From a virus: 45,533 bases of DNA. Location of the stretch: the IMG/VR virus record IMGVR_UViG_3300021405_000002; one strand, 5' to 3'. Of the stretch, positions 1-45,533 are shown in pieces. Each line of letters begins with the position of its first letter. Position 1 is the stretch's first letter. Position numbers and translations under genes: made by a program. Below the pieces are notes generated by a model. That model did not search any database. It was not told where the DNA came from and saw nothing but the letters and a program-made list of their open reading frames with translations.

Positions 1-127
1 AGGAGAACGCGCGCGTCGCTCAGATGCGCGATATTTACATCCAAGGACTGACCAACCTCGATCAGGATCTCCAGGCGCTCGTGCCGCCTGAGCCAGATTG
101 GGACAAGGAATACGAAAAGGATCCGCT
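1..127. repeat. Terminal overlap, identical to 45407-45533 (circular-assembly signature)
   Basis: Direct comparison of the two window ends shows 127 identical bases. An open reading frame runs through the junction in frame. Confidence 0.95.
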
Positions 128-1663: not shown

Positions 1664-1960
1664 ATGGAAACGAGGCGGCTCTACATGGTCCGCGACGGGA
1701 TCGTCCGTGAGACGATCTACGACGCCAGTGAGGGCCGCCTCGTTGTCAACGCGACGCAATATCTCGACGAGATCCTCGCCGGCGTGGCGCGCGATCGCGA
1801 GACCATGCGCAAGACCGAGAACAAGAAGATCGCGACGCTGCCGGCGATCGTCGTCGAGGATCTGATCAAGCGCGAAATCTACGACGATCCGGAGCGGTTC
1901 GACCGCTGGCTCAACTCGAGCGAGGCGACGCCGTGGCGCGTCTGGCAGGGGAGAGTCTGA
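1664..1960 (+). CDS. Hypothetical protein
   Basis: 98-aa ORF with high third-position GC, tightly packed after the capsid gene. Confidence 0.6.
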   Translation: METRRLYMVRDGIVRETIYDASEGRLVVNATQYLDEILAGVARDRETMRKTENKKIATLPAIVVEDLIKREIYDDPERFDRWLNSSEATPWRVWQGRV

Positions 1961-2577
1961 TGGCGAAAGCGCCTGAGAAACCACCTGAGAAACAGACCAC
2001 GCTGACCGATGCGGACTTTGAGCGCGCCGCGAAGGAGCTCAACGTTGAGGTGGCGGCGATCCGCGCCGTTGCCGAAGTCGAGGCCGCGGGTGCCGGTTTC
2101 CTCCCAGACGGGCGGCCCGCGGCCTTGTACGAAGCGCATATCTTCCACAAGCACAGTAAAGGCGCGCACGCCGCGGCGAAGGATCGCAATGGCGTCGCGT
2201 TGTCTTCGTCGGGATGGAACGCGAAGCTCTACGGCGCTACTGGGACTAATCAACATAACCGCTACGAAGATGCACGTCGGTTGAACGCCGACGCCGCCAA
2301 CAAGGCGTGCTCCTGGGGCACCTTTCAGATCCTCGGTGAGAACCACGCCGTCTGCGGCTTCGACAATTCGCAGGATTTCGTTGACGCCATGTGGTCCGGA
2401 GCGCCGGCGCATCTCGACGCCTTCGTGAAGTTCATCAAGGGCAACCGGCTCGACGCGCCGCTGCGCAACAAGAACTGGGCCCAGTTCGCGCGCGGCTACA
2501 ACGGTCCCGGCTACGCTCAGAACCAGTACGACCGAAAGATGGACGCAGCTTATCGGAAGTGGAAGGCGAGGGGATGA
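1960..2577 (+). CDS. Endolysin, N-acetylmuramidase family (PF11860-like)
   Basis: Motifs LTDADFERAAKELNVEVAAIRAVAEVEA, WGTFQILGENH and FARGYNGPGYAQNQYD. The ATG at 1960 overlaps the upstream stop (TGATG) and has GGGGAGAG upstream. Confidence 0.85.
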   Translation: MAKAPEKPPEKQTTLTDADFERAAKELNVEVAAIRAVAEVEAAGAGFLPDGRPAALYEAHIFHKHSKGAHAAAKDRNGVALSSSGWNAKLYGATGTNQHNRYEDARRLNADAANKACSWGTFQILGENHAVCGFDNSQDFVDAMWSGAPAHLDAFVKFIKGNRLDAPLRNKNWAQFARGYNGPGYAQNQYDRKMDAAYRKWKARG

Positions 2578-2892
2578 GTGGCCGACAACAATCTGGTCAT
2601 TCCGCCGCCAACGCCGAAGCTGTTGGACTATCCGGCGTCGATGGGGCTGAGCATCGCGGTCGTTCTGACCATCGTTCTGGTCATCGTGGCCAATCGGTTC
2701 GACAAGACCGGCGGCACGCTCACCGTTTCGATTTTGGTGATCTTGGCCTTCATCAGCCTGGTCACGTTCTGCGTCTATTTCACCGTTCCAACCGACGAAA
2801 TCACCTCGGGCGCGATCGGCGGCCTGGTCGCCGCTTTCGGCGCGGTCGTCGCCTACTGGCTCAGCCGAACTCCGAGAGGACCGCCTGAATGA
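2578..2892 (+). CDS. Putative holin (three hydrophobic helices)
   Basis: GTG start directly after the endolysin stop. 104 aa with three predicted TM segments. Confidence 0.6.
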   Translation: MADNNLVIPPPTPKLLDYPASMGLSIAVVLTIVLVIVANRFDKTGGTLTVSILVILAFISLVTFCVYFTVPTDEITSGAIGGLVAAFGAVVAYWLSRTPRGPPE

Positions 2893-3694: not shown

Positions 3695-5988
3695 ACCAGT
3701 GGGTCGATCCCAACGGCGACACGGTTCCTAACGACTGGGCCCCTGGTCTGCCGCCCAATGGCGAATGGCAGGACGGCTGTGGCTGCGAGCCGCCTGGCGG
3801 CGCGGCCAGCGTCAGCGGGATCACCATCACCGGCGTGCCGGCGACAGTAAGCTCATTGTACTGGCAGGTTTCGCTCAACGACGGCTCGAGTCCGCCGAAT
3901 TTTCAGATCAATCAACTCGACGGCAAGGGCGCTTTTGTCTCGACCGCGGCTGAGATCACGCCCTCGATGATTTATTTCGACTATCCGGTTCTGCTGAGCC
4001 GCGATCCAGTCGAGCCGATGGAGGCGGTGACTCTTGAATATCTCGAGGCGCACGAGACCGGTATTCCGGAGCCGCCTGACAACCAGACTTATGGGCGCGC
4101 TTTAGGGGCTTGGAACCTCGTGGTTCCGCAGTCGGGCGGCACTTACACCGGAGCGGTCTCGCTGGGCGCAGGCGGCGCAGTGACGTCGGGCGCGCTGCAG
4201 TTCTTTGGCTCGGCGGCGGCTTATTTCCCCGCGCTGGCGCAGTTGCAGATTGGCGATGGTCCCGCGGGTCAGGTGCCGACAGCGGACGGCAGCGGCAATC
4301 TGACTTGGACGACTCCGGTTACTGGCGGGCCTTACCTGCCCATTGCGGGCGGCACGGTCACCGGCAGCTTGACAGTCAATCAGGTTTTGACCGTTCAGGG
4401 CAGCAATTCGATGGTGCTGAACGCCCCAGTCACCGGCGGCAGTCAGCGCACCATTCTCGGCATGGCCGCTAACGTCGCTCGCTGGGGGTTGACGCTCGGC
4501 GACGGGACCGCTGAAGGCGCGAACAACGTTGGGGCGAATTTTAGCCTTGCGGGTTACGGCGTCACCGGCGCGTTTCTCGGCACTTGGCTTTCCATTGCGC
4601 GTGCGGACGGTTCGACGGTCTTTAACGGCTCGGGCGTCACCATTCAGGGCGGCTTGGCGGTTAACGGGCTTCTCGCGCTCGCTAGCCCGAACAATCTCGC
4701 GATCTATGGCGGGACGCCTGGTCAATTCTTGTCGACGAATGGCTCAGGCGTGCTCTCCTGGGCCAGCGCGGCTGGCGGCGGAGCGTCGATCACGGTTAGC
4801 GACACACCCCCTTCAGCGCCCTCCGTAGGGGCTCTGTGGTGGGACAGCGTCGGCGGGCAATTGTACGTCTATTATTCGGACGCCAACAGTTCACAGTGGG
4901 TTCCGGCCAGCAACGCTGCGAGCCTTCCGCCGCCCGCTTCGACGACGGTATTGGGCTCGGTCAAGGTTGACGGGACGTCGATCAAGGCGGCGGCGGACGG
5001 CACGATTTCGACCGTGCTGATCCCGATGGGCGACAACAGGCTCATCAACGGCGACATGCGGATCGACCAAAGGTGGAACGGCGCGGCCGAGGCGGGGGTC
5101 AATACCTATACCGTTGACCGCTGGTTTTATGGTGCAACTCAGGGGGCCAAGGGAACGTGGGGCCGTTCTAGCGCCAGTGGACTTAACCCATTTCCTTATT
5201 GTCTTTGCTTCACGTCATCGTCTGCGTATGCGGTCGTGGCTGGAGACAGTTTCAATTTTCAACAACGAATTGAAGCGGATCTTGTCAGCGACTTTGCATT
5301 CGGAACGCTGCAAGCGCAAGCAGTGACGCTGTCCTTTTGGGCGTATTCCAGTTTAACTGGTACATTCAGTGGAGCATTGGGCAATAATCCGGCCGGATCA
5401 ACCCGCTCATATCCTTTCACTTTCTCACTTCCAACAGCCAATACATGGACGAGGATTATTATTACTGTCCCTGGCGATACTAGCGGCGCTTGGACAATGT
5501 TGGGCAGTGGAGCAGGGTTTTTATTAACCTTTGATCTCGGCACGGGCGCGACTTATCGCGGTCCCGCCAACGCATGGGCAAGCGCGAATTACATCGGCGC
5601 GAATGGCGCGGTCAGCGTCGTCTCGACCAACGGCGCGACCTTCTACGTGACCGGCGTCAAGCTAGAGATCGGCTCGGTAGCAACGCCGTTCAATCGGCAG
5701 TCGCTCGCTAAGAGTATGGCGGATTGTCAGAGGTATTTCGCCAACTCTCAGGCAGTTCAGCTCAGTGCCTATGTCACGGCTGGGTTGACTTTTGGTCAAA
5801 GCGTAACCTTTCCAGTGACAATGCGAGTTGCTCCAACAATTACGCTTGTGGGGCCGACCTACTCCAATGCGAGTGGCGCGGCGGTTACAACAAATAGCCT
5901 TGGCGCTGTCACTGTCTATGCGACTGGAGCAGCTGCGGGGCTCGGATCGTTTACAATTTCTTCTTTGCAGTTGAGCGCGGAGCTTTGA
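3691..5988 (+). CDS. Tail fibre 1 (765 aa)
   Basis: Gly/Ser/Thr/Ala-rich fibre repeats. The C-terminal ~320 aa are paralogous to ORF 6016..7221 (GDNRLINGDMRIDQR...VKLEIGSVATPFNRQSLAKS.ADCQRY...LQLSAEL). Confidence 0.8.
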   Translation: MNQWVDPNGDTVPNDWAPGLPPNGEWQDGCGCEPPGGAASVSGITITGVPATVSSLYWQVSLNDGSSPPNFQINQLDGKGAFVSTAAEITPSMIYFDYPVLLSRDPVEPMEAVTLEYLEAHETGIPEPPDNQTYGRALGAWNLVVPQSGGTYTGAVSLGAGGAVTSGALQFFGSAAAYFPALAQLQIGDGPAGQVPTADGSGNLTWTTPVTGGPYLPIAGGTVTGSLTVNQVLTVQGSNSMVLNAPVTGGSQRTILGMAANVARWGLTLGDGTAEGANNVGANFSLAGYGVTGAFLGTWLSIARADGSTVFNGSGVTIQGGLAVNGLLALASPNNLAIYGGTPGQFLSTNGSGVLSWASAAGGGASITVSDTPPSAPSVGALWWDSVGGQLYVYYSDANSSQWVPASNAASLPPPASTTVLGSVKVDGTSIKAAADGTISTVLIPMGDNRLINGDMRIDQRWNGAAEAGVNTYTVDRWFYGATQGAKGTWGRSSASGLNPFPYCLCFTSSSAYAVVAGDSFNFQQRIEADLVSDFAFGTLQAQAVTLSFWAYSSLTGTFSGALGNNPAGSTRSYPFTFSLPTANTWTRIIITVPGDTSGAWTMLGSGAGFLLTFDLGTGATYRGPANAWASANYIGANGAVSVVSTNGATFYVTGVKLEIGSVATPFNRQSLAKSMADCQRYFANSQAVQLSAYVTAGLTFGQSVTFPVTMRVAPTITLVGPTYSNASGAAVTTNSLGAVTVYATGAAAGLGSFTISSLQLSAEL

Positions 5989-26391: not shown

Positions 26392-26579
26392 ACTGGATGC
26401 TTATGTCGCTGAGCGCGCGTCATCTGACCGCGTTTGACGCCCAATTTGGTGGGCTTGTTGTGCCCCTTCTTGAGCTCGCCGGCTTTCTGCAGCGTCGACG
26501 TCGCGATTGCATAAGCGCTCGAGGTCGAGTGCCCCTTCGCTTTGATTCGCTTCACTGCGGCGTCGAGGATTTTCGGCAT
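26388..26579 (-). CDS. Basic 63-aa hypothetical protein
   Basis: The ATG at 26579 shares one base with the upstream stop (TGATG). Sequence MPKILDAAVKRIKAKGHSTSSAYAIATSTLQKAG... Confidence 0.45.
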   Translation of the reverse strand: MPKILDAAVKRIKAKGHSTSSAYAIATSTLQKAGELKKGHNKPTKLGVKRGQMTRAQRHKHPV

Positions 26580-27121
26580 CACGGCACCGCAATCGCGTTC
26601 GAAGTGGCGTTGGCTGAGCCCGCAGCGTTGCTCGCGGTGACGCGACACGAAACGTTGGTTCCGCTGTCGGCCGCCTGGACGGTGTAGGTCGACTGCGTTG
26701 CGTCGGCGATCGGTGTGCCGCCGCGCAGCCAGGCATACGCATAGCTGGTTGGCGAATATTGCCAGATGCCTTGGGTGCAGGTGAGCGTCGTGGTGCCGGT
26801 GACCGCAGGCGCAGTGGTGTTCACCGGCGCGAGGTAGTCGCCCATGGCGTTGCTGATCGCGTCCGCCATGTCGGTGTTCGCGAGATTGCCGCCTTTGCCG
26901 ATATTGATGATCGCCAAAACTTCGTTGGTGAACGGCGTATTCGCCGCCTGGCCAGGGATCAATCCAGCCGGCGCGGTTTCCATCGTCGTGTCATGCGTCG
27001 TGGTGTCCGGATCGAGCAAAGCGACGATGGCGTTGAGCTCTGCCGCCTTATTCGGATACCATTTGTAATTCTTGGCGACGAGCTCGAGCTCGCCTTGGAA
27101 AGTCACGACATCGTAGGACAT
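26579..27121 (-). CDS. Protein with C-terminal Ig-like domain
   Basis: The ATG at 27121 shares one base with the upstream stop. The C-terminus LTCTQGIWQYSPTSYAYAWLRGGTPIADATQSTYTVQAADSGTNVSCRVTASNAAGS resembles a bacterial Ig-like repeat. Confidence 0.55.
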   Translation of the reverse strand: MSYDVVTFQGELELVAKNYKWYPNKAAELNAIVALLDPDTTTHDTTMETAPAGLIPGQAANTPFTNEVLAIINIGKGGNLANTDMADAISNAMGDYLAPVNTTAPAVTGTTTLTCTQGIWQYSPTSYAYAWLRGGTPIADATQSTYTVQAADSGTNVSCRVTASNAAGSANATSNAIAVP

Positions 27122-27624
27122 CAGTAGTTGTCTCCTCGAAGAAAGCCGCCTCGACCTGGCACGCAATTGCAATAGGGCCAGTTATTTTGCGCGCCGCTTT
27201 GCTCGCCAAGCGCCTGGCCTAGCCCTTGGAAGTTTAACTGTTGCTGCGCAAGCGCCCGATTTTGCTGCACCTGAGCTTGCTGCGCGTGAGCCTGACTTTG
27301 CAGCATCATGCGCTGGCGCATCTCCTCAGTGATCTGATGATACGGCAGTGGATTCATCGCCGCTTGCGCATGGTCTTGCTGACGCAAGCGATGCGCTGCA
27401 TCCGCGCGATCGCGCCAGGCGTGAGCGATCTCTCGCCAACCGTCGATATCCCCTCGGACGTGCTCAAGCTGGCGCTCGAGGTCATCGATGCGCGCCTTGA
27501 GCTCAGCGATCTCCGCGTTGGGCTTGATCGAAGAGAGAAGCTCCTTCGATGAGGAGTCGCTCGAAGTTTGCCGCTTCGCGACTGGGATCATCGCTAGGAG
27601 TGCTAGAGTCGACATCAAACCCAT
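27121..27624 (-). CDS. N-terminally anchored coiled-coil, Gln-rich protein
   Basis: Strong RBS GGAGGAGG 6 nt before the ATG at 27624. N-terminus MSTLALLAMIPVA, then AEIAELKARIDDLERQLEH. Confidence 0.6.
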   Translation of the reverse strand: MGLMSTLALLAMIPVAKRQTSSDSSSKELLSSIKPNAEIAELKARIDDLERQLEHVRGDIDGWREIAHAWRDRADAAHRLRQQDHAQAAMNPLPYHQITEEMRQRMMLQSQAHAQQAQVQQNRALAQQQLNFQGLGQALGEQSGAQNNWPYCNCVPGRGGFLRGDNY

Positions 27625-28222
27625 TTTTGTCCTCCTCCCGCCAGCTTATGCGTGACGCGGTGAACAGTCCATCCTGATTTTTCTCCGGAAAGAAACAAAA
27701 CCAGCCAAACGGCATCGCGCCTTGCTTCAGCTTTTTACCCTTCCAGCCAGGCCTGTGCATCATCGGCAGTCGTTCGACGCCGATAAAGACATGGTGCAAA
27801 TGTTGCATGATGTCGGAGCGGCCCGCGCCCTCAAGCGCCATCAGCCGCAGGAGCACATAGACCGGCAGACCAAGCTTGAGCCCGTGGCGAATGAAAGCGT
27901 CGGCCCAGCGGTAAGGCGGATTGGTCACAATCGCCTGGAGGTAGGTCACATTGCAGGATTTGAAAAAATCGATGCCGGTCTGGATCTCCGAATCGCGCCC
28001 TGCATAATCGACCAAGTCGTGGCTGATCACGCGCCAGCCGCCAGCCAGGAGCTCCCGCGAAATCGCGCCGCGGCCGGCGCACGGTTCGAAGAGTACGCGA
28101 TAAAGGTCGAGGGCTCCGGTGCGAATCAGCGCGCGCGTCGCTTCCGGCGGCGTTTCACGCAAATCGTAGGCGCGGTCTTTGAACTTGCCCTTAACCGCGC
28201 CCTGTCGCGATTTCGCTTTCAA
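27503..28222 (-). CDS. SAM-dependent DNA methyltransferase (NPPY; N6-adenine or N4-cytosine)
   Basis: FEPCAGRGAISREL (motif I) and IVTNPPY (motif IV). The proposed TTG start at 28222 overlaps the upstream TGA (TTGA). The ORF track allows extension to 28306. Confidence 0.75.
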   Translation of the reverse strand: MKAKSRQGAVKGKFKDRAYDLRETPPEATRALIRTGALDLYRVLFEPCAGRGAISRELLAGGWRVISHDLVDYAGRDSEIQTGIDFFKSCNVTYLQAIVTNPPYRWADAFIRHGLKLGLPVYVLLRLMALEGAGRSDIMQHLHHVFIGVERLPMMHRPGWKGKKLKQGAMPFGWFCFFPEKNQDGLFTASRISWREEDKNGFDVDSSTPSDDPSREAANFERLLIEGASLFDQAQRGDR

Positions 28223-28395
28223 TTGACTCGCCCCAGCGGTTCCTTGAGTTCCTCGAGGATGACCGCAACCAGCTTGATCAGCGCTTCTTCCGGCGGGCAC
28301 ACGCACGCAACCGGCTCATCCGCTTCGAAAATGACCAGGCTTAAGCGGCCGCAGTTCTCGCAGCGCGCGACCGACAGTCCGTTGCCTTCAATCAT
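28219..28395 (-). CDS. 58-aa Cys-cluster (zinc-ribbon-like) protein, absent from the ORF track
   Basis: Hand translation: MIEGNGLSVARCENCGRLSLVIFEADEPVACVCPPEEALIKLVAVILEELKEPLGRVN. ATGA overlap upstream and TTGA downstream. Confidence 0.5.
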   Translation of the reverse strand: MIEGNGLSVARCENCGRLSLVIFEADEPVACVCPPEEALIKLVAVILEELKEPLGRVN

Positions 28396-28508
28396 TTGCA
28401 GCGCTCAATCACGTAAATGATTACGCCTAGAATTACGCAAAACTCGCCGATAGACCAGCTAAGCTGATCAAGATTCGTCGTCCAAGTCGGCGGCGAATGC
28501 TCAATCAT
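28392..28508 (-). CDS. 38-aa single-TM micro-protein, absent from the ORF track
   Basis: Hand translation: MIEHSPPTWTTNLDQLSWSIGEFCVILGVIIYVIERCK. ATGA overlaps at both ends. Confidence 0.4.
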   Translation of the reverse strand: MIEHSPPTWTTNLDQLSWSIGEFCVILGVIIYVIERCK

Positions 28509-29230
28509 GCCGCCATCCTATCGACAAAGGCTTGGGCTTCGCGCCAGTCGTTTTGATTGCGCCCTTGCCGCCTGGCTGAATAACTCCACGCCATGCTGTC
28601 AGCCGATTCGAGGCAATCGCGGATCGCTTTGACGCTAAGACTTGTGGTCTTGAGGCCAAACCCGTGTAATCGAAGATCAGGACGCGCATCGAGGATAGCC
28701 TCTAGAACAGCCAGAACAGCCCCAGGATTGCCGTTGCGCTTACAGACGCTGCCGACGCCCACATAAGCGCCCTTGGCCAGTCTTGAGCCATAAGCGAGGA
28801 CGTGAGCTCCGTAATCGGGGGGCGCGTAGCCTTGCAGAACCGGCATAATGGCGATCCCGCCAGTATCGAGGGCGACGAGCGCGTCGTAACGCTCGATCGT
28901 CAACCGCTGATGCTCAGCAATCGTCAAACCTGTCTTGGCCAGCATCGCCGGCTCGCACATGTAATCCTGAGCGACCGCGGTGATGAGATTAGGCGCAGCC
29001 CATTTGCGAATCATCTCAGCATAAACCTCGACCGGCTCGGGATAGCCGCCATGCTTAGCAATCGTGGTGAATGCGCCCGAATCCATGATCCAGGGCTGGT
29101 CAGTAAACTTGCTCTTGCGCCCCTTGGGTCCGATTAGCGTTGAGACACTGACGAACACCGGGCCCAGGTGCTTGGCGTCGGAAGGATGGTGGACGCCGAC
29201 ATAGAATTTCACTTGCCGCGGCCTTTCCAC
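28505..29230 (-). CDS. dpdA: DpdA-like DNA transglycosylase (TGT superfamily)
   Basis: Motifs MDSGAF, GVGSVCKR, LHGFGLK and DSMAWS, in the order I recall for phage/bacterial DpdA. An alternative GTG start at 29212 forms a GTGA overlap with the primase stop. Confidence 0.6.
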   Translation of the reverse strand: MERPRQVKFYVGVHHPSDAKHLGPVFVSVSTLIGPKGRKSKFTDQPWIMDSGAFTTIAKHGGYPEPVEVYAEMIRKWAAPNLITAVAQDYMCEPAMLAKTGLTIAEHQRLTIERYDALVALDTGGIAIMPVLQGYAPPDYGAHVLAYGSRLAKGAYVGVGSVCKRNGNPGAVLAVLEAILDARPDLRLHGFGLKTTSLSVKAIRDCLESADSMAWSYSARRQGRNQNDWREAQAFVDRMAA

Positions 29231-37523: not shown

Positions 37524-38038
37524 GCCTTCCGGCCTATCCCTGGGACGCCCGTCCGGACGCGATGCCTCTCACCGCGGACGAGGTGTGTGAAGCCCTCTAC
37601 CAAGCGGAGGGCGACATCACCGCGGCCAGCCAGCGGCTGAAGGTTGGCTCGCTGATTTTGCGCAAGTTCATCGAGCGTTCCTCCCGCGCCAGAGCCGTGG
37701 TCAGAGAAATGGACATGCGGCTGGCGGACAAGGCGCGATCGAAGCTCGCCCAAGCTCTGGACGATCACGACAATCGGCGGGTGGATTGGGCGATCCGGTA
37801 CGTTCTGAACTCGAAGAACGCGCGTCCGTTGGGTTGGGCCAGCAGCGATCCGAGCGAGGACGCTCAGCGCAACGCGCTTGCGGGTCCTCTCGTCACCCTG
37901 AACCTTCCGCCGGCGCAATGGGCGGACGGCACGGCGATTGGGCCCAGGGAGCTTGCCAAGAACGTGATCGAGTTGCATCCCTCGTCCCAGCTGCCAACGA
38001 TCCCGAAGGCAAGCGAGACGGACCCCGGTGACCGGTGA
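37520..38038 (+). CDS. terS: Terminase small subunit (putative)
   Basis: 172 aa directly upstream of and overlapping terL. HTH-like segment ITAASQRLKVGSLILRKFIE. Confidence 0.6.
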   Translation: MSLPAYPWDARPDAMPLTADEVCEALYQAEGDITAASQRLKVGSLILRKFIERSSRARAVVREMDMRLADKARSKLAQALDDHDNRRVDWAIRYVLNSKNARPLGWASSDPSEDAQRNALAGPLVTLNLPPAQWADGTAIGPRELAKNVIELHPSSQLPTIPKASETDPGDR

Positions 38039-39365
38039 CGACGGAGCTGACTTCGATCTGGTCGACGAGCCGGAGGCCAAGCTTGCGCCGGCGATCATCC
38101 CGTACATTCCTCGCCCGCATTTTCGTCCGCTGCATGCGTCGACCAAGCGCTGGATTTTCGCCGTCGCCCATCGCAGGGCTGGAAAAACCGTCGCCCTGGT
38201 CAACCAGCTGATCAGAGCCGCTCTATCGAACCCGCGACGTCATCCGCCGCCCCGGTATGCCTATGTTGGGCCCTCGTTCGACCAGGTGAAGGATTTATGT
38301 TGGGCCTATTTGAAGCACTATGCTGGCGGTTACCCTGGGGTGCGCTTTCTCGAGGGCGAGCTGACGGTGATTTTCCCGCATGGGGCGACGATCCGGCTGT
38401 ATGGCGGCGGGCAGGCTTATGAACGGATCCGGGGGATTTATCTCGATGGCGCGGTGTTGGACGAATATCCCTTGCTCAATCCGCGCGCTTGGACCTCTGT
38501 GGTTCGCCCCACTTTGGCGGATTACCGGGGATTCGCGGTCATTTCCGGCACCAGCAACGGCGACGACCATTTTCACGCCGTCAAGCTCAAGGCCGAAGAC
38601 GACGAGCAATGGGATGTATTCGACATCAAGATTACTGACACCGGGGAAGACGCGCTGAGTTTTGAAGAGCAAAGGGAACTAACGCGCGACATGCCGGCGG
38701 ACGAATACGCTAGAGAAATGCTCAATGCTTTCGATGCGCCGGTTGAGGGCGCGTATTATACGGAGAGTCTGAACGCCATCCAATCCCAGCATCGCATCGG
38801 TTCAGTTCCTGTCAATCTTTCCGGCACTTTGATCACCGGTTGGGACATCGGCATTCACGATTTTACTTGCATTTGGGTGTTTCAGTTGGTTGGCAAGGCG
38901 ATTCATTTCGTCGATTACATTGAGGATCGGGGGCACAAGGCCGAGCATTATCTGAATATTCTGGATCTAAAGGCGAAAGCTTGGGGGGTGCCGTTCAAGG
39001 CGCATATCCTGCCGCATGACGTCGAGGCGCGGGAGTGGATTTCGGGCGAGAGCCGGCGTTTCGGGCTGATGGACGCGACGCCGACGCCGATTCTGACCGC
39101 GGAACGCGTTTCCGACGCCGATGGGGTGAGCGCGGTGCGGGGAATTCTGGGGATAAGCTGGTTTGACGAGCAACGCTGCCGGCGGGGGCTGGCGCGGCTT
39201 CGAGGCTACAAGAAATCGAAGTTTGGCACGCCGGTGCACGACGATCACAGCCATGGCGCGGATGCGCTGAAGACGGTGGCGGTGGGGTTGCCGCATGTGA
39301 CGGCGCTGAGTTCGAGCCTGAGTTTCGGCCGGCGGCTGAGAAGGCGGATTCGGGGGCTTGTTTAG
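38028..39365 (+). CDS. terL: Terminase large subunit
   Basis: Walker A-like HRRAGKTV, Walker B IYLDGAVLDEY, and nuclease-domain acidic motifs WDIGIHDFT and HGADAL. Confidence 0.85.
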   Translation: MTGDDGADFDLVDEPEAKLAPAIIPYIPRPHFRPLHASTKRWIFAVAHRRAGKTVALVNQLIRAALSNPRRHPPPRYAYVGPSFDQVKDLCWAYLKHYAGGYPGVRFLEGELTVIFPHGATIRLYGGGQAYERIRGIYLDGAVLDEYPLLNPRAWTSVVRPTLADYRGFAVISGTSNGDDHFHAVKLKAEDDEQWDVFDIKITDTGEDALSFEEQRELTRDMPADEYAREMLNAFDAPVEGAYYTESLNAIQSQHRIGSVPVNLSGTLITGWDIGIHDFTCIWVFQLVGKAIHFVDYIEDRGHKAEHYLNILDLKAKAWGVPFKAHILPHDVEAREWISGESRRFGLMDATPTPILTAERVSDADGVSAVRGILGISWFDEQRCRRGLARLRGYKKSKFGTPVHDDHSHGADALKTVAVGLPHVTALSSSLSFGRRLRRRIRGLV

Positions 39366-39394
39366 CTCAACCCTGTTCTGCTAGCATCGGACAG

Positions 39395-39601
39395 ATGACC
39401 ACGCATGGGATTCGCGCCGATCGAGTGACGCTGAGCGTCAGTCCGGAACAGCAGGAATGGCTCAACGGTTTGGCGACGCGGTACGGCGTTTCGGTCAGCG
39501 ACATTTTGCGTCGGCTGATCGACGAGACGCGGGGCGCGTATTTGACGCCGCGCGACGCACGCTCGTCACGGGAGACGAGTAGTCAACGGGAAGCCGCCTA
39601 A
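39395..39601 (+). CDS. Ribbon-helix-helix (CopG/Arc-like) DNA-binding protein
   Basis: RVTLSVSPEQQEWLNGLATRYGVSVSDILRRLIDE fits a beta-strand plus two helices. Confidence 0.55.
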   Translation: MTTHGIRADRVTLSVSPEQQEWLNGLATRYGVSVSDILRRLIDETRGAYLTPRDARSSRETSSQREAA

Positions 39602-39619
39602 CCAAACTGGAGGACGCGC

Positions 39620-40312
39620 ATGGGTCAAGGATTTTACGCCTACATTCAGCCGATCGACGACGCCGCGCATCCCGATCAGGGGCTTCCTGGCGGCGGGCGT
39701 CCGGGTCATCGTCCTGGTCGTCCCGGCCGGCCGATCGATCCTGGTTTTGGCTGGGGCGGCGGCGAGCGTCCCGGTCATGGGCTTCCGCGGCCGCCGCACA
39801 CTTGGCCGCGCCCGCCTGGCGGCGGCCTTCCGGTCGATCCCGAATGGGGGATTCCGGAGGGCGGGCACTTGCATCCGGATCATGGTCTGCCGATCCATCC
39901 GATCGATCCGGAGCATCCCGATCAAGGCTTGCCGGAAGTTCCCGGCGTCGAGCCGCTGCCGCCCGATCCGCCCCCGGGCACGGTGTGGCCGCCTTTGCCG
40001 CCCGACGTTCCCGCCGGCCGCGCGCTCGCTTTGGTGGCGATCGAGGGCGTCGGTTATCGCTACGTGGTGATCGAGATTGGCGAGCGGCCGGTCGATCCGG
40101 ATTACGGCGTCGAGGAGGGAACCCCGGAGCATCCGGACGTGCAGCCGCCGCGCCCTGGCGTTCCGCCGCGGCCCGGTCAGGGGCTTCCGGGTCAGCGTCC
40201 GCCGGTCGCCGGTCAGCCGCTGCCGCCGCAGCGTCCCGGTCAACCGCCGCAGCCTGGCCAGGGCTTGCCGCAACCGCCGACCGCCCAGCCCAAGCCCGGG
40301 CAGCGGCGGTAA
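39620..40312 (+). CDS. Pro/Gly-rich repeat protein (HPDQGLP / xGLP repeats)
   Basis: GGAGG lies 7 nt before the ATG. 230 aa with one ordered-looking core (ALALVAIEGVGYRYVVIEIGERP). Confidence 0.6.
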   Translation: MGQGFYAYIQPIDDAAHPDQGLPGGGRPGHRPGRPGRPIDPGFGWGGGERPGHGLPRPPHTWPRPPGGGLPVDPEWGIPEGGHLHPDHGLPIHPIDPEHPDQGLPEVPGVEPLPPDPPPGTVWPPLPPDVPAGRALALVAIEGVGYRYVVIEIGERPVDPDYGVEEGTPEHPDVQPPRPGVPPRPGQGLPGQRPPVAGQPLPPQRPGQPPQPGQGLPQPPTAQPKPGQRR

Positions 40313-40424
40313 GAGATCCGGACCTGGTGGCTCGACGCGCGTACCAGGCGAGGATGGCGCTAAAGGCAAGCATCCGGCCCAGGGAGGCTGAAAGGCCTCC
40401 CACACTCTAACCGGGGGTTTTCCC

Positions 40425-41072
40425 ATGAATAAATTGGTGCTTTCAACCGCCTTGCTCGCCGCGATCGGCGCAACGCCGGCGCATGCGACGCTGCAGATCG
40501 AGGTCTTCGACAACGGCTCGCTGATCGACAACATCACTGGCGTCACCACGGGCGCGGCTTCGCTCACCGCCAGCGACGCCAATTTCGCCAACATCACCAT
40601 CGCCGCGCAGGGCTCTCCGATCTTGCCGAATGCGGACCTATCGAGCGTGACGCTCGACGCCAGCGCGGCGGCGGGCTTTACCGGCTCGCACACGCTGACC
40701 GTCGATGTGATCCAGAGCGCGATTTTCGGCACCGGAAACACGCTCTCGACGTTCACGGTCAACGGCTTGACCAACGATCCGGGTCCGACGATCGAATCGA
40801 CGTTCGCCGGCGGCGGTCTGCTGGCTACGCACACCTTTCCGGCGGCGTTGCTGGACGGCTCGGCTGGGCCGTTCTCGGCGGCGACGGGCGCGTTCACGAC
40901 GGACGAGACGCAATTCGCCGTTGACTTCACTGCGCCGCGGCAGTCGTTTGGCGGCTCGATCCAGTTGACGACTGGCGTTCCGGAATCTTCGACTTGGGTG
41001 ATGATGGGGCTAGGTTTCGCCGCGCTTGGCTTCGCCGGTTGGCGTCGTCGGGGCGCGCGTCTCGCGTTCTAG
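40425..41072 (+). CDS. Secreted PEP-CTERM-anchored protein
   Basis: Signal peptide MNKLVLSTALLAAIGATPAHA. C-terminus VPESSTWVMMGLGFAALGFAGWRRRGA gives the PEP-like motif, TM helix and Arg cluster. Confidence 0.75.
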   Translation: MNKLVLSTALLAAIGATPAHATLQIEVFDNGSLIDNITGVTTGAASLTASDANFANITIAAQGSPILPNADLSSVTLDASAAAGFTGSHTLTVDVIQSAIFGTGNTLSTFTVNGLTNDPGPTIESTFAGGGLLATHTFPAALLDGSAGPFSAATGAFTTDETQFAVDFTAPRQSFGGSIQLTTGVPESSTWVMMGLGFAALGFAGWRRRGARLAF

Positions 41073-41102
41073 CGGTCGTTTACCCCCAAGATCGCTGGAA
41101 TA

Positions 41103-41160
41103 GGGATCGGACGTCGGAGAGAGCCGCTAGCCATGGCGTCCGATCCCGCCGGGGTTTTCG
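41103..41160 (+). terminator. Possible intrinsic terminator (11-bp stem GGGATCGGACG/CGTCCGATCCC, then GGGGTTTT)
   Basis: Read from the sequence. The loop is long (23 nt), so confidence is moderate. Confidence 0.4.
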
Positions 41161-41412
41161 ATGTTAGGCACCGATCATTTCACCGGTGAGACGGTTGAAC
41201 AGGTTCTTACCCATCCTGGCCAGGCCCATTTCGCCATTCCCGGGGCTAAAACGCGCTGCAGCGCCTGTTGGTTCTGGTCGCCCAGGCGGGCCGGCGACAA
41301 AAAGGCGATTTGCGGCAAGGCCGCCTCGATGACGTCGGGGCGAAGGCCGCGGGCCATTCCCGCTTTTGCCACGATTTGTCAGTACTTTACCAAGACTGCG
41401 CCAGAGATTTGA
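41161..41412 (+). CDS. Cys-containing hypothetical protein
   Basis: 83 aa: GQAHFAIPGAKTRCSACWFW...KKAICGK...ATICQYF. Confidence 0.5.
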   Translation: MLGTDHFTGETVEQVLTHPGQAHFAIPGAKTRCSACWFWSPRRAGDKKAICGKAASMTSGRRPRAIPAFATICQYFTKTAPEI

Positions 41413-41462
41413 CCTCAACGGGAAACACGCGATAAATCCGCGCCGGGGGATGGGGCCGGCGC

Positions 41463-41825
41463 GTGGACATCCTCGATCGTCATGCCGACAAGTGGGAGCC
41501 TCTGACTGAGGTTGGATGCTACCTGTGGACGGGTGCCGTCGCGGGCGCTCCGGTTTTGCGTCCGCAAGTCACGATCGGGAGCATGGTCGATAGGACGCGC
41601 AGAACCGTGTATGTTTCACGGTTAGTTTGCGAAGAATTTCACGGACCGCCTCCGACGCCGCGGCATCAGGCTTTGCACAATACGCCGAATGGCTGCATTG
41701 GCGGCCTTTGTGTTGCGCCCCATCATTTGCGTTGGGGAACTAGTCGAGAAAATCACGCTGACGTTCATCCTCAAGCGCGCTCGGATCGCTCAAGGCGATC
41801 TTGGGTAAGTCGACGTCTGGTATAG
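41463..41825 (+). CDS. HNH endonuclease (second copy, HNH_3-like)
   Basis: GCYLWTGAV...RLVCEEFHG...ALHNTPNGCIGGLCVAPHHLRWGTSRENHAD. GTG start. Confidence 0.65.
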   Translation: MDILDRHADKWEPLTEVGCYLWTGAVAGAPVLRPQVTIGSMVDRTRRTVYVSRLVCEEFHGPPPTPRHQALHNTPNGCIGGLCVAPHHLRWGTSRENHADVHPQARSDRSRRSWVSRRLV

Positions 41826-44293
41826 ATATAACAAAAATGGAACGTATTTTCGCGTCTTTCAAGGATAGCTCAAGTCTAAACACCGGTTCATACGACCCTG
41901 GTGATCCGGAGTCCTATGAGCAATTCTTGAACGCGATGATTAAAGATGCTCGTGACTATGAAGGAATGGTATTAGCAGCTAACAGGGACTACGCGCAGAA
42001 GTATTATTACGGACTTTTACCTACACTGTACCCTGATGATAACCCATGGTCAGATACCACTATCGTTCAAGACCCAAACGCTACTTATGACCAATTCAAT
42101 AAGGATCAGGAAGACGCAGCAAATCGATCATCGTTCGTTTCAACCGATGTTCGTGATGCAATTATGCTTATGTTGCCGTCTTTAATTAGATTATTTGGTG
42201 CAAATGAAAGTCCAATCGAGCTTGTTCCAAGAAGCGCCGCTGAAAGCGACATGGCTCAACAGGCAACGCAATATGTAAACTATACATTTTGGAATGATAA
42301 CCCTGGTTTTCTCATTTTGTACGGTGCCTTTAAAGACGCAATGACGGTAAAAACCGGTTTTGTTAAGTGGTGGACCGACGATCGCAAGGAGATGCGTCGG
42401 AAGACCTTCATGGGCATCACAGCCCAGCAAATTCAACAGCTTCTGATCGAAGACCCAACCGCTAAGTTGATCGAGGTGGGCAATCCGACGCCAGGCGTCG
42501 CGGCTCCGCCGCCGCCAGCTGCGCCGCCGCCTCCACCAGGTCCGCCAGGAATGGCTCCAGGCGGCCCACAGATGGCTCAGGGCGGGCCTGGGCCAATTCC
42601 CGGTCCTCCACAGCCTCCTGGGGCTCCCCCGCCTCCAGGGGCCGTTTCTGGCCCGCCTGGAGGCCAGCCGCCCCTGCCGCCTGGCCTCGCCGGCGCGATC
42701 GCGCCGCCGGCCTTCGACCATGTGGTGATCGAATACCAGGTGGCGAAGCCGATTATCCGCATCACCGGCGTGCCTCCGGAGGAGATGCGGCTCGATCGTT
42801 ATGCGCGAACTTTTCGGGAAAGCCGGATCGTCGGGCATGAACGCGTCGCGCCGATCGATGAGCTCACCGCGATGGGCTACCAACGCGAAATGCTTCTCGA
42901 CTACGTGCAATCGCAGTCGATCGCGGAGTTCACGACCGAGCCGCAATTGCGCAATCCTGGCCGGATCATGTCGACCCGGGTTGGCGACGGGGTGATGTAC
43001 GGCGAGTGGTACATCCGCGCCGATCACGACGGCGACGGCTTTCCGGAACTCCGCCACGTCATCACGATGGGCGAGAACGCCACGCTGATTTCGGACGAGC
43101 CGGCGAACCGGATCAAGTTCGCCCTGTTTTCCGTAGACCCGATTAGCCACACGATCGTCGGGGATTCCATCGCGGATCTGACGATGGACATTCAGCGGAT
43201 CAAAACCAACCTCTCGCGCGCCATTCTCGACTCGGCCGCCGAGAGCATCAACCCGAAAACCGTCATCAACGAGCTCACGACCAACGTCGACGACGCTTTG
43301 AACGACGACTTAGGCGCGGTCATTCGGACGCGTGGGGATCCCAACGCCGCGGTCGCTTTCAACAACATCCCGTTTCTTGGTCAGGCGGCGATGCCAATCA
43401 TCGAATACCTGAACGACGTGCTCCAGCGTCGTACTGGGTTGTCCGATGCGGCAAAGGGCCTCGACCCGAAAGCACTTCAATCGTCCACGATGGTCGGCGT
43501 TGAAGCGATAATCAATGGGCAGCAAGAGCGCACTGAGCTTGTCGCGCGCGTACTCGCTGAGACGGGTTTCAAGGATTTGTTCAGCGGCTTGTTTAACGAG
43601 GTCTGTGAGAATCCCTCGCAGCAACGGACTCTGAAGGTCAACGGCAACTGGGTAGATTACGACACCTCGACGTTCGACGCCTCGATGGGGGTGGAAGTCA
43701 ACCCAACCCTCGGCAAAGGTTCTGACACCGTCAGACTGATGACATTGCAACAGATCAAGACAGATCAGCAAACGATCGTAGCGCAAATGGGCCTCAACAA
43801 CCCTGTTTGTGGCCTACAAGAGATGATGAATACGCAAACTGACATGTTGGCAATCGCCAACATTAAAAATGTGAACAGATATTTCAAGATGCCCAATCCG
43901 GTGCAGCTGCAAGCGATGCTCAGCGCGCCGAAAGAGCCCGACGCGATGACCTTGGCGGCCCAAGCCCAGTACCAAAAGGTGAAAGCCGACGCCGCGGAAG
44001 CCTTGGGCAATCAAAACCTCAAGAAAGCGCAGCAAGACCAAGACAATGCGCTCGCACAAGCGCAATTGCGCGAAAAGACACTCTACGACCAGGCGAAGAT
44101 TCAACTCGAGGCTGACGCGCTGCATGCTCAGCATGTCCAGGCGCTCGGCAAGATGGCGAGCGACATGTTCAAGACCGCGCACGACGGCGCGATCGACGTG
44201 CATCAGACGCACGTTCAGGCGGCCAGTGACCAGGCGGTCGCGGACACCCAGGCCGAAGCGGCCGCACAGCAACCGCAGGGAGGCGGAGCGTGA
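41801..44293 (+). CDS. Portal protein
   Basis: About 820 aa upstream of scaffold and capsid. FVSTDVRDAIMLMLPSLIRLF and QATQYVNYTFW motifs, plus a long Q/A-rich helical C-terminus (barrel-like). The start is either the TTG at 41801 or the ATG at 41837. Confidence 0.8.
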   Translation: MGKSTSGIDITKMERIFASFKDSSSLNTGSYDPGDPESYEQFLNAMIKDARDYEGMVLAANRDYAQKYYYGLLPTLYPDDNPWSDTTIVQDPNATYDQFNKDQEDAANRSSFVSTDVRDAIMLMLPSLIRLFGANESPIELVPRSAAESDMAQQATQYVNYTFWNDNPGFLILYGAFKDAMTVKTGFVKWWTDDRKEMRRKTFMGITAQQIQQLLIEDPTAKLIEVGNPTPGVAAPPPPAAPPPPPGPPGMAPGGPQMAQGGPGPIPGPPQPPGAPPPPGAVSGPPGGQPPLPPGLAGAIAPPAFDHVVIEYQVAKPIIRITGVPPEEMRLDRYARTFRESRIVGHERVAPIDELTAMGYQREMLLDYVQSQSIAEFTTEPQLRNPGRIMSTRVGDGVMYGEWYIRADHDGDGFPELRHVITMGENATLISDEPANRIKFALFSVDPISHTIVGDSIADLTMDIQRIKTNLSRAILDSAAESINPKTVINELTTNVDDALNDDLGAVIRTRGDPNAAVAFNNIPFLGQAAMPIIEYLNDVLQRRTGLSDAAKGLDPKALQSSTMVGVEAIINGQQERTELVARVLAETGFKDLFSGLFNEVCENPSQQRTLKVNGNWVDYDTSTFDASMGVEVNPTLGKGSDTVRLMTLQQIKTDQQTIVAQMGLNNPVCGLQEMMNTQTDMLAIANIKNVNRYFKMPNPVQLQAMLSAPKEPDAMTLAAQAQYQKVKADAAEALGNQNLKKAQQDQDNALAQAQLREKTLYDQAKIQLEADALHAQHVQALGKMASDMFKTAHDGAIDVHQTHVQAASDQAVADTQAEAAAQQPQGGGA

Positions 44294-44825: not shown

Positions 44826-45533
44826 TAGCGCCGCGCAAGCGTTTGAGCGCGCGATCGATCCGGCTCAGACGCAGAGCGAGGGAACGCCGCGCGCGCCCGC
44901 GCCGCGGGATACGAGCGGCCGTTTCGCCCAGGTCGCGGAGAAGCCCGAACCATTTCTCGAGATCCGGACGATCGAAGGCGATCCGGAGACGGGAGACACG
45001 AACGACGCGGGAGACGATCCTCGCCTCCGTGCTCGAGAGAGGGAGATAGCCGATGGTCGGTTTGACGAGAGGGCGCACCGCGAAAGTCAATCACGCGCCC
45101 GACAAGCGCCCACCGAAACTGAAAGGCAGAGTGGCGAACGACGTAGCCCCGACGCCCCGGTCAGCGATGATGCCGCCGCCGACGATGGACACTTGCGAGC
45201 CGATGATGAGTCGCAAGACGCCGAAGCCGACGCCGCCGGCGATGAAGAGAGTGAAGACGGCGATCTCGAAAACGCCCAGTTCGAAATCACGGTCGACGGC
45301 GAGCCTCAAACCGTATCGCTAGGCGAGCTCCGTGACGGCTACATTCGGACGGCGACGTTCCATTCGCGGCTGAACAAGGTCAACGAGCACAAGCAAGCGG
45401 TCGACCAGGAGAACGCGCGCGTCGCTCAGATGCGCGATATTTACATCCAAGGACTGACCAACCTCGATCAGGATCTCCAGGCGCTCGTGCCGCCTGAGCC
45501 AGATTGGGACAAGGAATACGAAAAGGATCCGCT
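44809..45533 (+). CDS. Scaffolding protein, 5' part (continues at 3..617 after the junction)
   Basis: Hand translation from the ATG at 44809 (MPEGLDSAAQAFERAID...) stays open to the window end and joins the frame of 24..617. It is not in the ORF track because no stop lies inside the window end. Confidence 0.6.
   Translation, partial: MPEGLDSAAQAFERAIDPAQTQSEGTPRAPAPRDTSGRFAQVAEKPEPFLEIRTIEGDPETGDTNDAGDDPRLRAREREIADGRFDERAHRESQSRARQAPTETERQSGERRSPDAPVSDDAAADDGHLRADDESQDAEADAAGDEESEDGDLENAQFEITVDGEPQTVSLGELRDGYIRTATFHSRLNKVNEHKQAVDQENARVAQMRDIYIQGLTNLDQDLQALVPPEPDWDKEYEKDP
45407..45533. repeat. Terminal overlap, identical to 1-127
   Basis: Direct comparison. Confidence 0.95.

Follow-up and report, generated by a model that had tools for sequence, protein, structure and literature searches.

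Our analysis concerns a gene of a soil phage that appears to draw on a protein-sorting system of its bacterial host. The phage is represented by IMG/VR record IMGVR_UViG_3300021405_000002, a stretch of 45,533 nt with podovirus-type gene content (the whole of which we refer to as the window), and the gene occupies positions 40425-41072 on its plus strand, where it encodes a 215-residue protein composed of a signal peptide, a beta-sandwich passenger domain and a C-terminal PEP-CTERM tail. Judged by these defining sequence features, the product is a PEP-CTERM protein and a member of no named cargo family, as it scores below the cut-offs of both NF038126 and NF035944. We lean, if only modestly, towards the interpretation that through this gene the phage supplies a substrate to the host exosortase (PEP-CTERM/EpsH) pathway, and that the domain of the protein is sent to the cell surface or matrix, where lectin-like binding would alter phage adsorption. 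In a wider proposal, to which we commit with slightly less than even confidence, phages of soil Alphaproteobacteria keep a modular exosortase-cargo locus, made up of a fixed Sec signal, a host-matched tail, at least four unrelated passengers and often a proline-rich partner, and hijack the host exosortase to plant lectin-like proteins of their own at the cell surface or within the exopolysaccharide matrix.

A PEP-CTERM gene in a complete phage genome

The preliminary description of this DNA, made from its letters and open reading frames (ORFs), had proposed a PEP-CTERM tail at the C-terminus of the protein, and a profile search bears this out, as TIGR02595, whose curated cut-off is 16 bits, matches residues 185-209 with a score of 20.7. 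Among the homologues, NF035944 (PEPxxWA-CTERM) is matched by 18 of 18 sequences (best E 6.6e-10), TIGR02595 is matched at E <= 0.01 by 17 of the 18 that were aligned, and a precomputed PF07589 match is present in most clusters. The family comprises 229 homologous protein clusters at E <= 1e-3; the 120 of these that were listed are 75-100% identical, all metagenomic and all about 215 residues long. Every one of the 120 contains PE..TW, with the third position of the motif giving PEP in 101, PEA in 10, PET in 5 and PES in 4, and the longer form PEPSTWA is found in 80. In the 18-sequence alignment P186, E187, T190, W191 and G197 are invariant, and homologues keep the layout of a transmembrane helix followed by a basic tail while the rest of the helix, like the signal peptide, drifts. 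Such a motif would be superfluous in a plain membrane anchor.

At the other end of the protein, the Sec-type signal peptide described previously is present by inspection; it comprises a basic residue (K3), a hydrophobic stretch of 13 residues (LVLSTALLAAIGA) and the A-H-A that precedes T22, and the junction A-x-A|TLQIE is conserved in the homologues. The protein contains no cysteine anywhere in its 215 residues, which marks the signal as one for signal peptidase I (SPase I) and not a lipoprotein signal. The boundaries of the ORF proved exact; just 11 in-frame codons precede the start, and the homologues begin at the same methionine. An antisense ORF of 454 residues (39566-40930) overlaps the gene and is preferred by a gene caller based on GC3, the GC content of third codon positions. 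Across 20 homologous genes, however, the variable columns of the core fall on codon positions 1, 2 and 3 of the plus frame in the numbers 98, 70 and 157, and the median dN/dS is 0.13 at a dS of about 1. Together these two measures identify the plus frame as a real gene under strong purifying selection and rule out both a spurious ORF and an antisense gene.

The claim that the gene is phage-encoded also stands. Window positions 1-127 recur exactly at 45407-45533, and because of these identical 127-bp ends we regard the assembly as circularly closed and the genome as complete, with a unique length of about 45.4 kb; circular closure likewise accounts for a scaffold gene that is divided between the two ends of the window, its ORF 24-617 being the continuation of the part at the 3' end. 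As had been described, the gene lies between the genes for the terminase large subunit (TerL) and the portal protein (Table 1). The closest cultured relative is Ochrobactrum phage vB_OspP_OH (phage OH) of the genus Wolominvirus, with a major capsid protein 61% identical and a TerL 48% identical to those of the window. The genes for TerL and portal abut in phage OH, whereas in the window they are 2.4 kb apart, and the PEP-CTERM gene therefore sits in an insert, which it shares with four other small ORFs, all co-oriented with the late genes. GC content is 64.8% in the PEP-CTERM gene and 72% in the proline-rich ORF of this insert but 59.6% elsewhere, and GC3 is 0.81 in the PEP-CTERM gene versus 0.65-0.69 in the genes for TerL and portal; this rise fits an old acquisition from a GC-richer genome or host, not contamination.

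These same figures bear on the alternative that we are dealing with host DNA and not with a phage gene, through mis-assembly, a prophage flank or a spurious ORF in GC-rich DNA. The locally raised GC and GC3, the long overlapping antisense ORF and the existence of bacterial chromosomal relatives could each be read in its favor. We nevertheless give it almost no credence, since the contig, in which TerL and portal flank the gene, closes on itself, independent samples show this gene order too (L003-L007; L and P numbers are our own labels), the family is present in 65 IMG/VR contigs by pattern scan, the 185,579 species-representative genomes of bacteria and archaea that were scanned with the two most conserved peptides yielded no family member, and both codon-position variation and dN/dS fit the plus frame. 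Host contamination and a spurious ORF are in this sense refuted as far as sequence data can refute them.

Exchange of the passenger and spread of the family

In our view the strongest argument that the sorting signal works in a phage setting is the modular swapping of the domain that it accompanies. Four sister phages (L133, L158, L164 and L188), whose TerL and portal show 81-82% and 84-88% identity, respectively, wherever the two genes occur together (the TerL of L188 is truncated), share the gene order proline-rich ORF, X, 83-residue ORF, portal, in which X encodes a protein of 239-251 residues with a different passenger. Two of the three alternative cargo proteins scanned pass TIGR02595 (21.6 and 23.2 bits), that of L158 reaches 32.1 bits with NF035944, and profile-profile comparison finds the alternative passengers unrelated to the window's (probability <=6%). 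At the level of DNA, the window and these four phages are homologous in the proline-rich ORF and in the signal-peptide codons (40425-40499), the homology is gone over 40500-40966, and it resumes at 40967-40989 to run through the tail and the hairpin into the next gene. The window tail is identical at 25 of 32 positions to the tail that L133 attaches to its unrelated passenger, versus 12-17 of 31 when it is set against tails of its own family in other lineages. A tail hidden Markov model (HMM) applied to about 140 phage loci distinguishes four passenger families, present in 66, 12, 11 and 2 contigs. Signal peptide and PEP-CTERM tail thus belong to the backbone of this phage lineage, whereas the passenger between them is exchanged, and such swapping behind a constant address label is the pattern expected of an arms race at the cell surface.

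Constancy of the two ends with interchangeable passengers is also what one might expect if the tail were a decoy that floods the host exosortase, keeps the PEP-CTERM matrix proteins of the host from maturing and thereby frees progeny from loosened flocs or biofilm. That the tail follows the phage lineage and not the passenger family would suit such a decoy, as would the requirement for PEP-CTERM proteins in floc formation by Zoogloea, which PMC12642866 attributes to Gao et al. (2018). A decoy, however, would not need what is observed here, namely a well-folded passenger that is the most conserved part of the whole protein (79% mean column identity, many invariant residues, dN/dS 0.13), and we consider this explanation quite improbable.

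The other cargo families were also located. The first (fam1) comprises proteins of about 240 residues of the 'TFSCADGQLGCDLSGGANNLL' or 'LRLAMSVDG' types and is encoded at L133 1363-2085, L164 6303-7022, L158 10532-11251 and L194 5176-5964; the second (fam2), of about 190 residues ('VENIGSxLNESLALPAE...FFEF'), is found in L139, L142, L144, L151, L152, L165, L166, L179, L180, L184 and L192. Both occur in related soil phages and have a signal peptide and a PEPSTW tail in the style of the window gene. A fourth PEP-tailed protein, of 252 residues (L051 11858-12616; L055 11887-12645, on the same contig as L148), combines an N-terminal hydrophobic segment with Gly-, Cys- and Pro-rich stretches and is encoded a few genes from the endolysin in phages of 71-80 kb. 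As these larger phages also carry the window-type gene, each holds two exosortase-type cargo genes. A lysis-related role for the fourth family is conceivable.

The proline-rich protein encoded immediately upstream of the cargo has an invariant core (PPPGT[VI]WPPLPP...GKA.ALV..G.GYRYVV.I) and a C-terminal PTAQPKR, is without a signal peptide, and matches no Pfam family and no PHROG. Its homologues (for example L002 9086-9832, L036 9166-9867 and L132 10001-10627; at least 115 IMG/VR matches) lie upstream of PEP-CTERM genes in several contexts, very often as the immediate neighbor, and with three passenger families. Whereas the loci collected first had been chosen for the window-type gene, about 66 loci were chosen for the proline-rich gene alone, and in 18 of these a PEP-tailed ORF of any family follows directly downstream, with one present within 10 kb in about half. 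The proline-rich protein may serve as a functional partner or as a recombination anchor.

The window-type gene itself is widely distributed among phages, its flanking genes falling into some 8-10 arrangements in several phage lineages; the contig counts rest on pattern-based scans and 10-kb flanks. It lies between TerL and portal in the window and L003-L007, after the SNF2 helicase gene at the junction of the replication and tail modules in about 20 contigs of related podoviruses, between putative portal and scaffold/capsid genes in an unrelated lineage, and between a tail-fibre gene and the endolysin gene in the 71-80 kb phages, and several minor arrangements were found in addition. The PEP-CTERM protein reaches 81-88% identity, and its core 75-100%, even between phages with SNF2 helicases only 55-58% alike or with backbones that have nothing in common, and this high identity across lineages reflects repeated horizontal spread or very strong constraint, and probably the two together. 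The family is absent from the 50,697 cultured or deposited phage records of INPHARED (tblastn) and from the plasmids of PLSDB, and PHROGs contains no match for the gene, including any described exclusion or lytic-conversion family. Membership of a large phage-borne family and the modularity of the locus are results that go beyond the preliminary description.

More remote relatives give an indication of ancestry. Of the 877 clusters that an exhaustive profile search returned at E <= 1e-3, 106 remain at E <= 1e-10; most of the proteins are 210-230 residues long and of the same layout. NF038126 (FxDxF family PEP-CTERM protein) aligns residues 44-208 to positions 4-165 of its 165-position profile and scores 31 bits against a cut-off of 50; on this sequence evidence, the phage protein is a distant relative of NF038126 and not a member. 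The relatives P0284 and P0278 (43% identical) are chromosomal, with conserved synteny to sulfotransferase, CobW and FGGY-kinase genes, P0133 (44% identical, with a PEPSTWA-type tail) lies among genes for ClpS/ClpA, phasin and a carboxylase, P0324 is more distant, and P0305 (56% identical) is phage-borne. Because the chromosomal relatives stand in non-phage synteny, the phage clade probably arose from a bacterial family. Close bacterial copies or prophages were sought and rejected, as the two-peptide scan of the species genomes gave none and the profile search gave only distant chromosomal relatives. The contig of P0305 (L204) encodes Acb2/Tad1-hairpin-like and Tad2-like proteins, which are anti-CBASS/anti-Thoeris sponges, at 4208-4732, between a putative terminase and portal, and this represents another accessory-gene slot in a head module.

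Proposed role, candidate hosts and neighboring genes

Prediction of the passenger structure provides the basis for proposing what the exported domain might do. An AlphaFold2 (AF2) model built on a 58-sequence alignment (20-89% identity) is a confident 12-strand beta-sandwich over residues 22-190 (pLDDT 92.1, pTM 0.87); it replaced a first model, built on 18 near-identical sequences, which gave pLDDT 64 and weak Foldseek matches. The best Foldseek matches in the Protein Data Bank (PDB) are carbohydrate-binding modules (CBMs), namely CBM61, a porphyran-binding CBM and CBM4/6/27/35, together with the C-terminal domain of Klebsiella tailspikes, and the match to TmCBM61 has an E value of 1.8e-4 with a TM-score of 0.42-0.48. 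Against BFVD, the highest-ranking matches come from the distal regions of tail fibres and minor tail proteins, with TM-scores of up to 0.50. These matches place the passenger in the lectin/CBM-like fold class. A decoy copy of the phage's own receptor-binding domain was considered and rejected, since blastp and family HMM searches against all window ORFs were empty, the best blastp hit (E 0.015) being to a segment of an unrelated ORF.

Combining these features, we propose that the gene would be transcribed with the late (packaging/head) genes, that Sec would export the pre-protein, with the signal peptide cut at AHA|T, and that the beta-sandwich of 165 residues would be kept in the periplasm by the C-terminal helix, the RRR cluster remaining cytoplasmic. 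The host exosortase would then recognize and cleave P-E-x-x-T-W and hand the domain to the cell surface or to the exopolysaccharide matrix. More speculatively, the lectin-like domain might bind a surface glycan there and so alter how phage particles encounter the infected cell. The most likely effects would be a masking of receptor or matrix, which would keep infected cells and debris from soaking up progeny and rival phages, or a remodeling of the matrix. The Llp lipoprotein of phage T5 masks FhuA, and the receptor masking proposed here can be likened to it.

Several observations weigh against exosortase-mediated display and should be set beside this proposal. The window tail narrowly misses the gathering threshold (GA) of Pfam PF07589 (19.0 versus 20.7, residues 185-209), falls short of NF035944 (18.8 bits against a cut-off of 35), and carries PES, a minority variant, in place of PEP. 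The structural matches, at TM-scores of 0.39-0.50 overall and about 10% identity, are at fold-class level only, so that glycan binding is a guess that the fold itself does not prove, and in sequence the passenger does not resemble the tail fibres of this phage. No sigma-70-like promoter was found in 39300-41900. Exosortase biochemistry is, to our knowledge, poorly established, and the notion of surface display hence rests on analogy with sortase. The window phage and its relatives look virulent, so that any remodeling of the surface would have to take effect before one infection cycle is over; the window ORFs scanned included no integrase and none is annotated in phage OH, which leaves the carrier state entertained by the preliminary description unsupported. 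The window contains no exosortase-like multi-pass ORF, and the phage would therefore be without an exosortase of its own, as none of the window ORFs has more than three predicted membrane segments. Around bacterial genes with the same tail, no exosortase was found within 10 kb among the 10 multi-pass ORFs scanned of 31 listed, these 10 being other transporters or enzymes, or matchless.

The tail could alternatively act as a C-terminal membrane anchor only, which would make the product an exosortase-independent periplasmic protein of the inner membrane, such as an injection-blocking superinfection exclusion protein or a spanin- or disruptin-like lysis accessory. The combination of a signal peptide with a C-terminal transmembrane helix resembles that of unimolecular spanins, which are also beta-rich (T1 gp11), and the gene resides in late modules, with a tail-fibre gene and an endolysin as its flanks in the 71-80 kb phages, where the fourth PEP-tailed family, with its N-terminal transmembrane segment, is encoded near the same lysis region; the Pfam score of the window tail points the same way. 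With neither lipobox nor cysteine, however, the protein would have no spanin-like link to the outer membrane, the endolysin and holin-like genes of the window (1933-2892) are about 6.3 kb off around the circle, and most contexts of the family are not beside lysis genes, the lineage of 71-80 kb phages being the only one in which the two adjoin. Moreover, P-E-x-x-T-W, which is kept in all 120 listed clusters and closely matches host-type sorting tails, is unneeded for an anchor. On these grounds we rate an anchor-only function as unlikely, and sorting by the host exosortase remains the interpretation that we prefer.

If the tail is read by a host enzyme, its form should point to the host. A scan of the species genomes with T[GN]VPEPSTW gave 55 loci, and the best 30 or so of these all belong to soil or water Alphaproteobacteria, among them Bradyrhizobium, Nitrobacter, Xanthobacteraceae, Roseiarcus, Rhodoblastus, Methylobacteriaceae, Phenylobacterium and many metagenome-assembled genomes (MAGs) from Danish soil; the bacterial proteins recovered share the tail alone with the phage protein. 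This alphaproteobacterial tail type agrees with the Hyphomicrobiales host of the nearest cultured relative and with the phage's GC content of 60%, and no tRNA gene that might serve as a further host clue was found in the window. The earlier idea that the gene restricts the host range to exosortase-positive bacteria thus gains indirect support from two features of the sequence, namely the tail variant and the apparent lack of a phage exosortase. The exosortase link of the candidate hosts is made through the published rule that EpsH homologues co-occur with PEP-CTERM proteins in genomes (Haft et al. 2006, PMC1569441).

The features of the locus are collected in Table 1.

Table 1. Features of the terminase-portal region and of the lysis genes in the window.
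Feature	Coordinates	Strand	Evidence and remarks
Terminase large subunit; left boundary of insert	38028..39365	+	Weak Terminase_6N match; similarity to TerL of phage OH
Small ribbon-helix-helix-like ORF in insert	39395..39601	+	Weak RHH_1 match; kept in L003, L006, L131, L158, L164
Pro/Gly-rich repeat protein, 230 residues	39620..40312	+	HPDQGLP and VDPDYGVDEG / RPVDPDYGVDEG repeats; conserved PPPGTVWPPLPP...GKALALVAIEGVGYRYVVIE core
GC-rich hairpin, 8 bp, in gap between Pro-rich ORF and PEP-CTERM gene	40382..40401	+	Predicted fold; followed by G-rich, Shine-Dalgarno-like GGGGG
PEP-CTERM cargo gene (signal peptide, beta-sandwich passenger, PEP-CTERM tail)	40425..41072	+	ORF of 215 residues plus stop, ATG start; TIGR02595; dN/dS 0.13
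Signal peptide, residues 1-21 (MNKLVLSTALLAAIGATPAHA)	40425..40487	+	Predicted SPase I site AHA|T; no lipobox Cys; DNA of codons 1-24 kept in sister phages with other passengers
Passenger domain, residues 22-184	40488..40976	+	Predicted 12-strand beta-sandwich resembling carbohydrate-binding modules; swapped DNA module ~40500-40966
PEP-CTERM sorting signal, residues 185-215	40977..41069	+	VPESSTW, predicted transmembrane helix VMMGLGFAALGFAGW, basic RRRGAR; C-terminus RRRGARLAF
Composite hairpin after PEP-CTERM gene	41082..41158	+	dG -40.1 kcal/mol for 98 nt, z -1.8; kept in L003, L004, L006, L007
Cys-containing ORF of 83 residues, downstream of PEP-CTERM gene	41161..41412	+	No family match; kept whichever passenger sister phages carry
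HNH endonuclease-like ORF overlapping portal start	41463..41825	+	Weak HNH_3 match; homologues in L133, L134, L155, L156
Portal protein, SU10 type; right boundary of insert	41801..44293	+	PF23899, E 4e-148
Endolysin	1933-2577		After capsid gene, not adjoining PEP-CTERM gene
Holin-like ORF	2578-2892		After capsid gene, not adjoining PEP-CTERM gene

Two hairpins bracket the PEP-CTERM gene. The one that follows it consists of a 13-bp stem (41103-41147) nested in an outer stem (41082-41155) and then UUUU, and of the terminator-like hairpin proposed by the preliminary description the structure is real and conserved in close relatives, but it is not a textbook terminator, having only four U and a z of -1.8, and it was not called by the terminator scan; it is possibly a weak terminator or an RNA-stability element. 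The upstream hairpin lies about 25 nt before the ATG and keeps its position in L003, L004 and L007 while its stem sequence differs (GGGAGGCC/GGCCUCCC versus GGGGCUCC/GGGGCCCC), which hints at a selected RNA structure; the stability of the region is unremarkable (z -1.2). Rfam gave no match within 39300-41900 at E <= 1, and no sigma-54 site (TGGCAC-N5-TTGC) lies upstream of the gene within three mismatches.

Among the neighboring genes, the 83-residue ORF downstream of the cargo is a conserved backbone gene of this phage group. Homologues of the HNH-like ORF vary in presence among close relatives, a pattern usual for mobile, homing-type elements that insert at this same hot spot. The portal protein contains, at about residues 225-305, a long low-complexity insert rich in Pro, Ala and Gly (PPPPAAPPPPPGPPGMAPGG...), which is also found in L130 and L132 and which, with the proline-rich ORF, explains the many spurious overlapping ORFs of the region. 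The window further encodes tail fibres, an ejection protein, a tail lysozyme, the endolysin and the holin-like protein, and the oppositely oriented early module encodes an SNF2 helicase, a DUF5906 primase-helicase, a methyltransferase and a queuine tRNA-ribosyltransferase-like protein. The last of these (28505-29230, minus strand; phrog_1279, E 6e-62; DpdA-like) adjoins the DNA methyltransferase (27503-28306, minus strand), a pairing that suggests that the phage DNA is modified, possibly with 7-deazaguanine. Also on the early strand (26579-27172, minus) is a gene for a 196-residue protein that over its last 85 residues matches Hoc-like/Ig-like virion decoration families (phrog_26223, phrog_2973); the context-D phages have a domain of this kind in one of their late proteins (L043 12841-13758).

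Relation to known systems

The view that PEP-CTERM cargo is undescribed as an accessory gene of tailed phages agrees with our literature searches, which found no such paper, two passing mentions apart. In one preprint, a PEP-CTERM domain is annotated in an integrative, virus-like element of Dehalococcoides (bioRxiv 10.64898/2026.09.15.751708), and another counts TIGR03118-family proteins among the host-derived genes of Yellowstone viral contigs (bioRxiv 10.1101/2023.11.15.567249).

Should the proposed role be true, viruses would here be seen for the first time to employ exosortase sorting, and the locus would define a new class of phage-host interface genes, adding a sorting route to the envelope modifiers that phages encode. 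Exosortase/PEP-CTERM sorting is widespread in bacteria of soil and sediment and in those that form flocs, and the roles of its cargo are largely unclear. A compact, conserved and well-folding phage cargo would offer a simple substrate with which to study the cleavage site, acceptor and destination of exosortase. The cassette-like swapping of the 'warhead' between a constant signal and tail suggests that the matrix or receptor layer of soil bacteria is the site of an arms race. A host-specific sorting signal within a phage gene would also provide an independent host clue for uncultured soil phages, such that the tails could act as built-in host-range markers; here the clue would lead to exosortase-positive Alphaproteobacteria such as relatives of Bradyrhizobium, Nitrobacter and Roseiarcus.

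With the PEP-CTERM/exosortase system (EpsH, Xrt; TIGR02595, PF07589; Haft et al. 2006) the protein shares the signal peptide, the P-E-x motif, the transmembrane helix and the basic cluster, as well as a small passenger of unassigned function, as in most cargo, and its tail has the PEPxxW[AV] form common in soil Alphaproteobacteria. It differs in that the phage gene lies in late operons, whereas bacterial cargo forms a single-gene operon with a sigma-54 site, that the sorting enzyme would be supplied by another genome, that of the host, and that the passenger is swapped as a cassette between a fixed signal and tail. NF038126 and the chromosomal relatives P0133, P0278 and P0284 have the same length and layout, but P0278 and P0284 bear the classical VPEPASLALLG tail, and the phage clade is far more uniform. 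Toward CBMs and the distal domains of tail fibres and tailspikes (TmCBM61, 2xom; the Klebsiella K2-2 tailspike, 8iqe), the likeness is one of beta-sandwich/jelly-roll fold class, as reflected in the top Foldseek matches of both PDB and BFVD, and the difference is that matches at TM-scores of 0.39-0.50 and about 10% identity carry no transferable ligand site. Unimolecular spanins of the T1 gp11 type would be comparable in their N-terminal secretion signal, beta-rich periplasmic body, C-terminal transmembrane helix and late expression; the PEP-CTERM protein differs from them in having no lipobox cysteine and in lying outside the lysis cassette of this phage, and PE..TW is absent from spanins.

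The moron and lytic-conversion envelope proteins of phages (Lom and Bor of lambda, Llp of T5, Cor of phi80/N15, Imm and Sp of T4) are alike in being encoded by accessory genes inserted between core genes and dispensable for virion structure. By analogy with them, the product described here would be exported to the envelope, with a probable effect on adsorption or exclusion, and its gene is likewise bracketed by hairpins and deviates in GC. It has no sequence or family relation to these proteins and carries a signal for exosortase-type sorting in place of the lipoprotein (Lol) or beta-barrel (Bam) routes. In summary, the locus joins a familiar sorting signal to a familiar phage strategy in a combination that has not been described before, and does so with a modular architecture that is unexpected.

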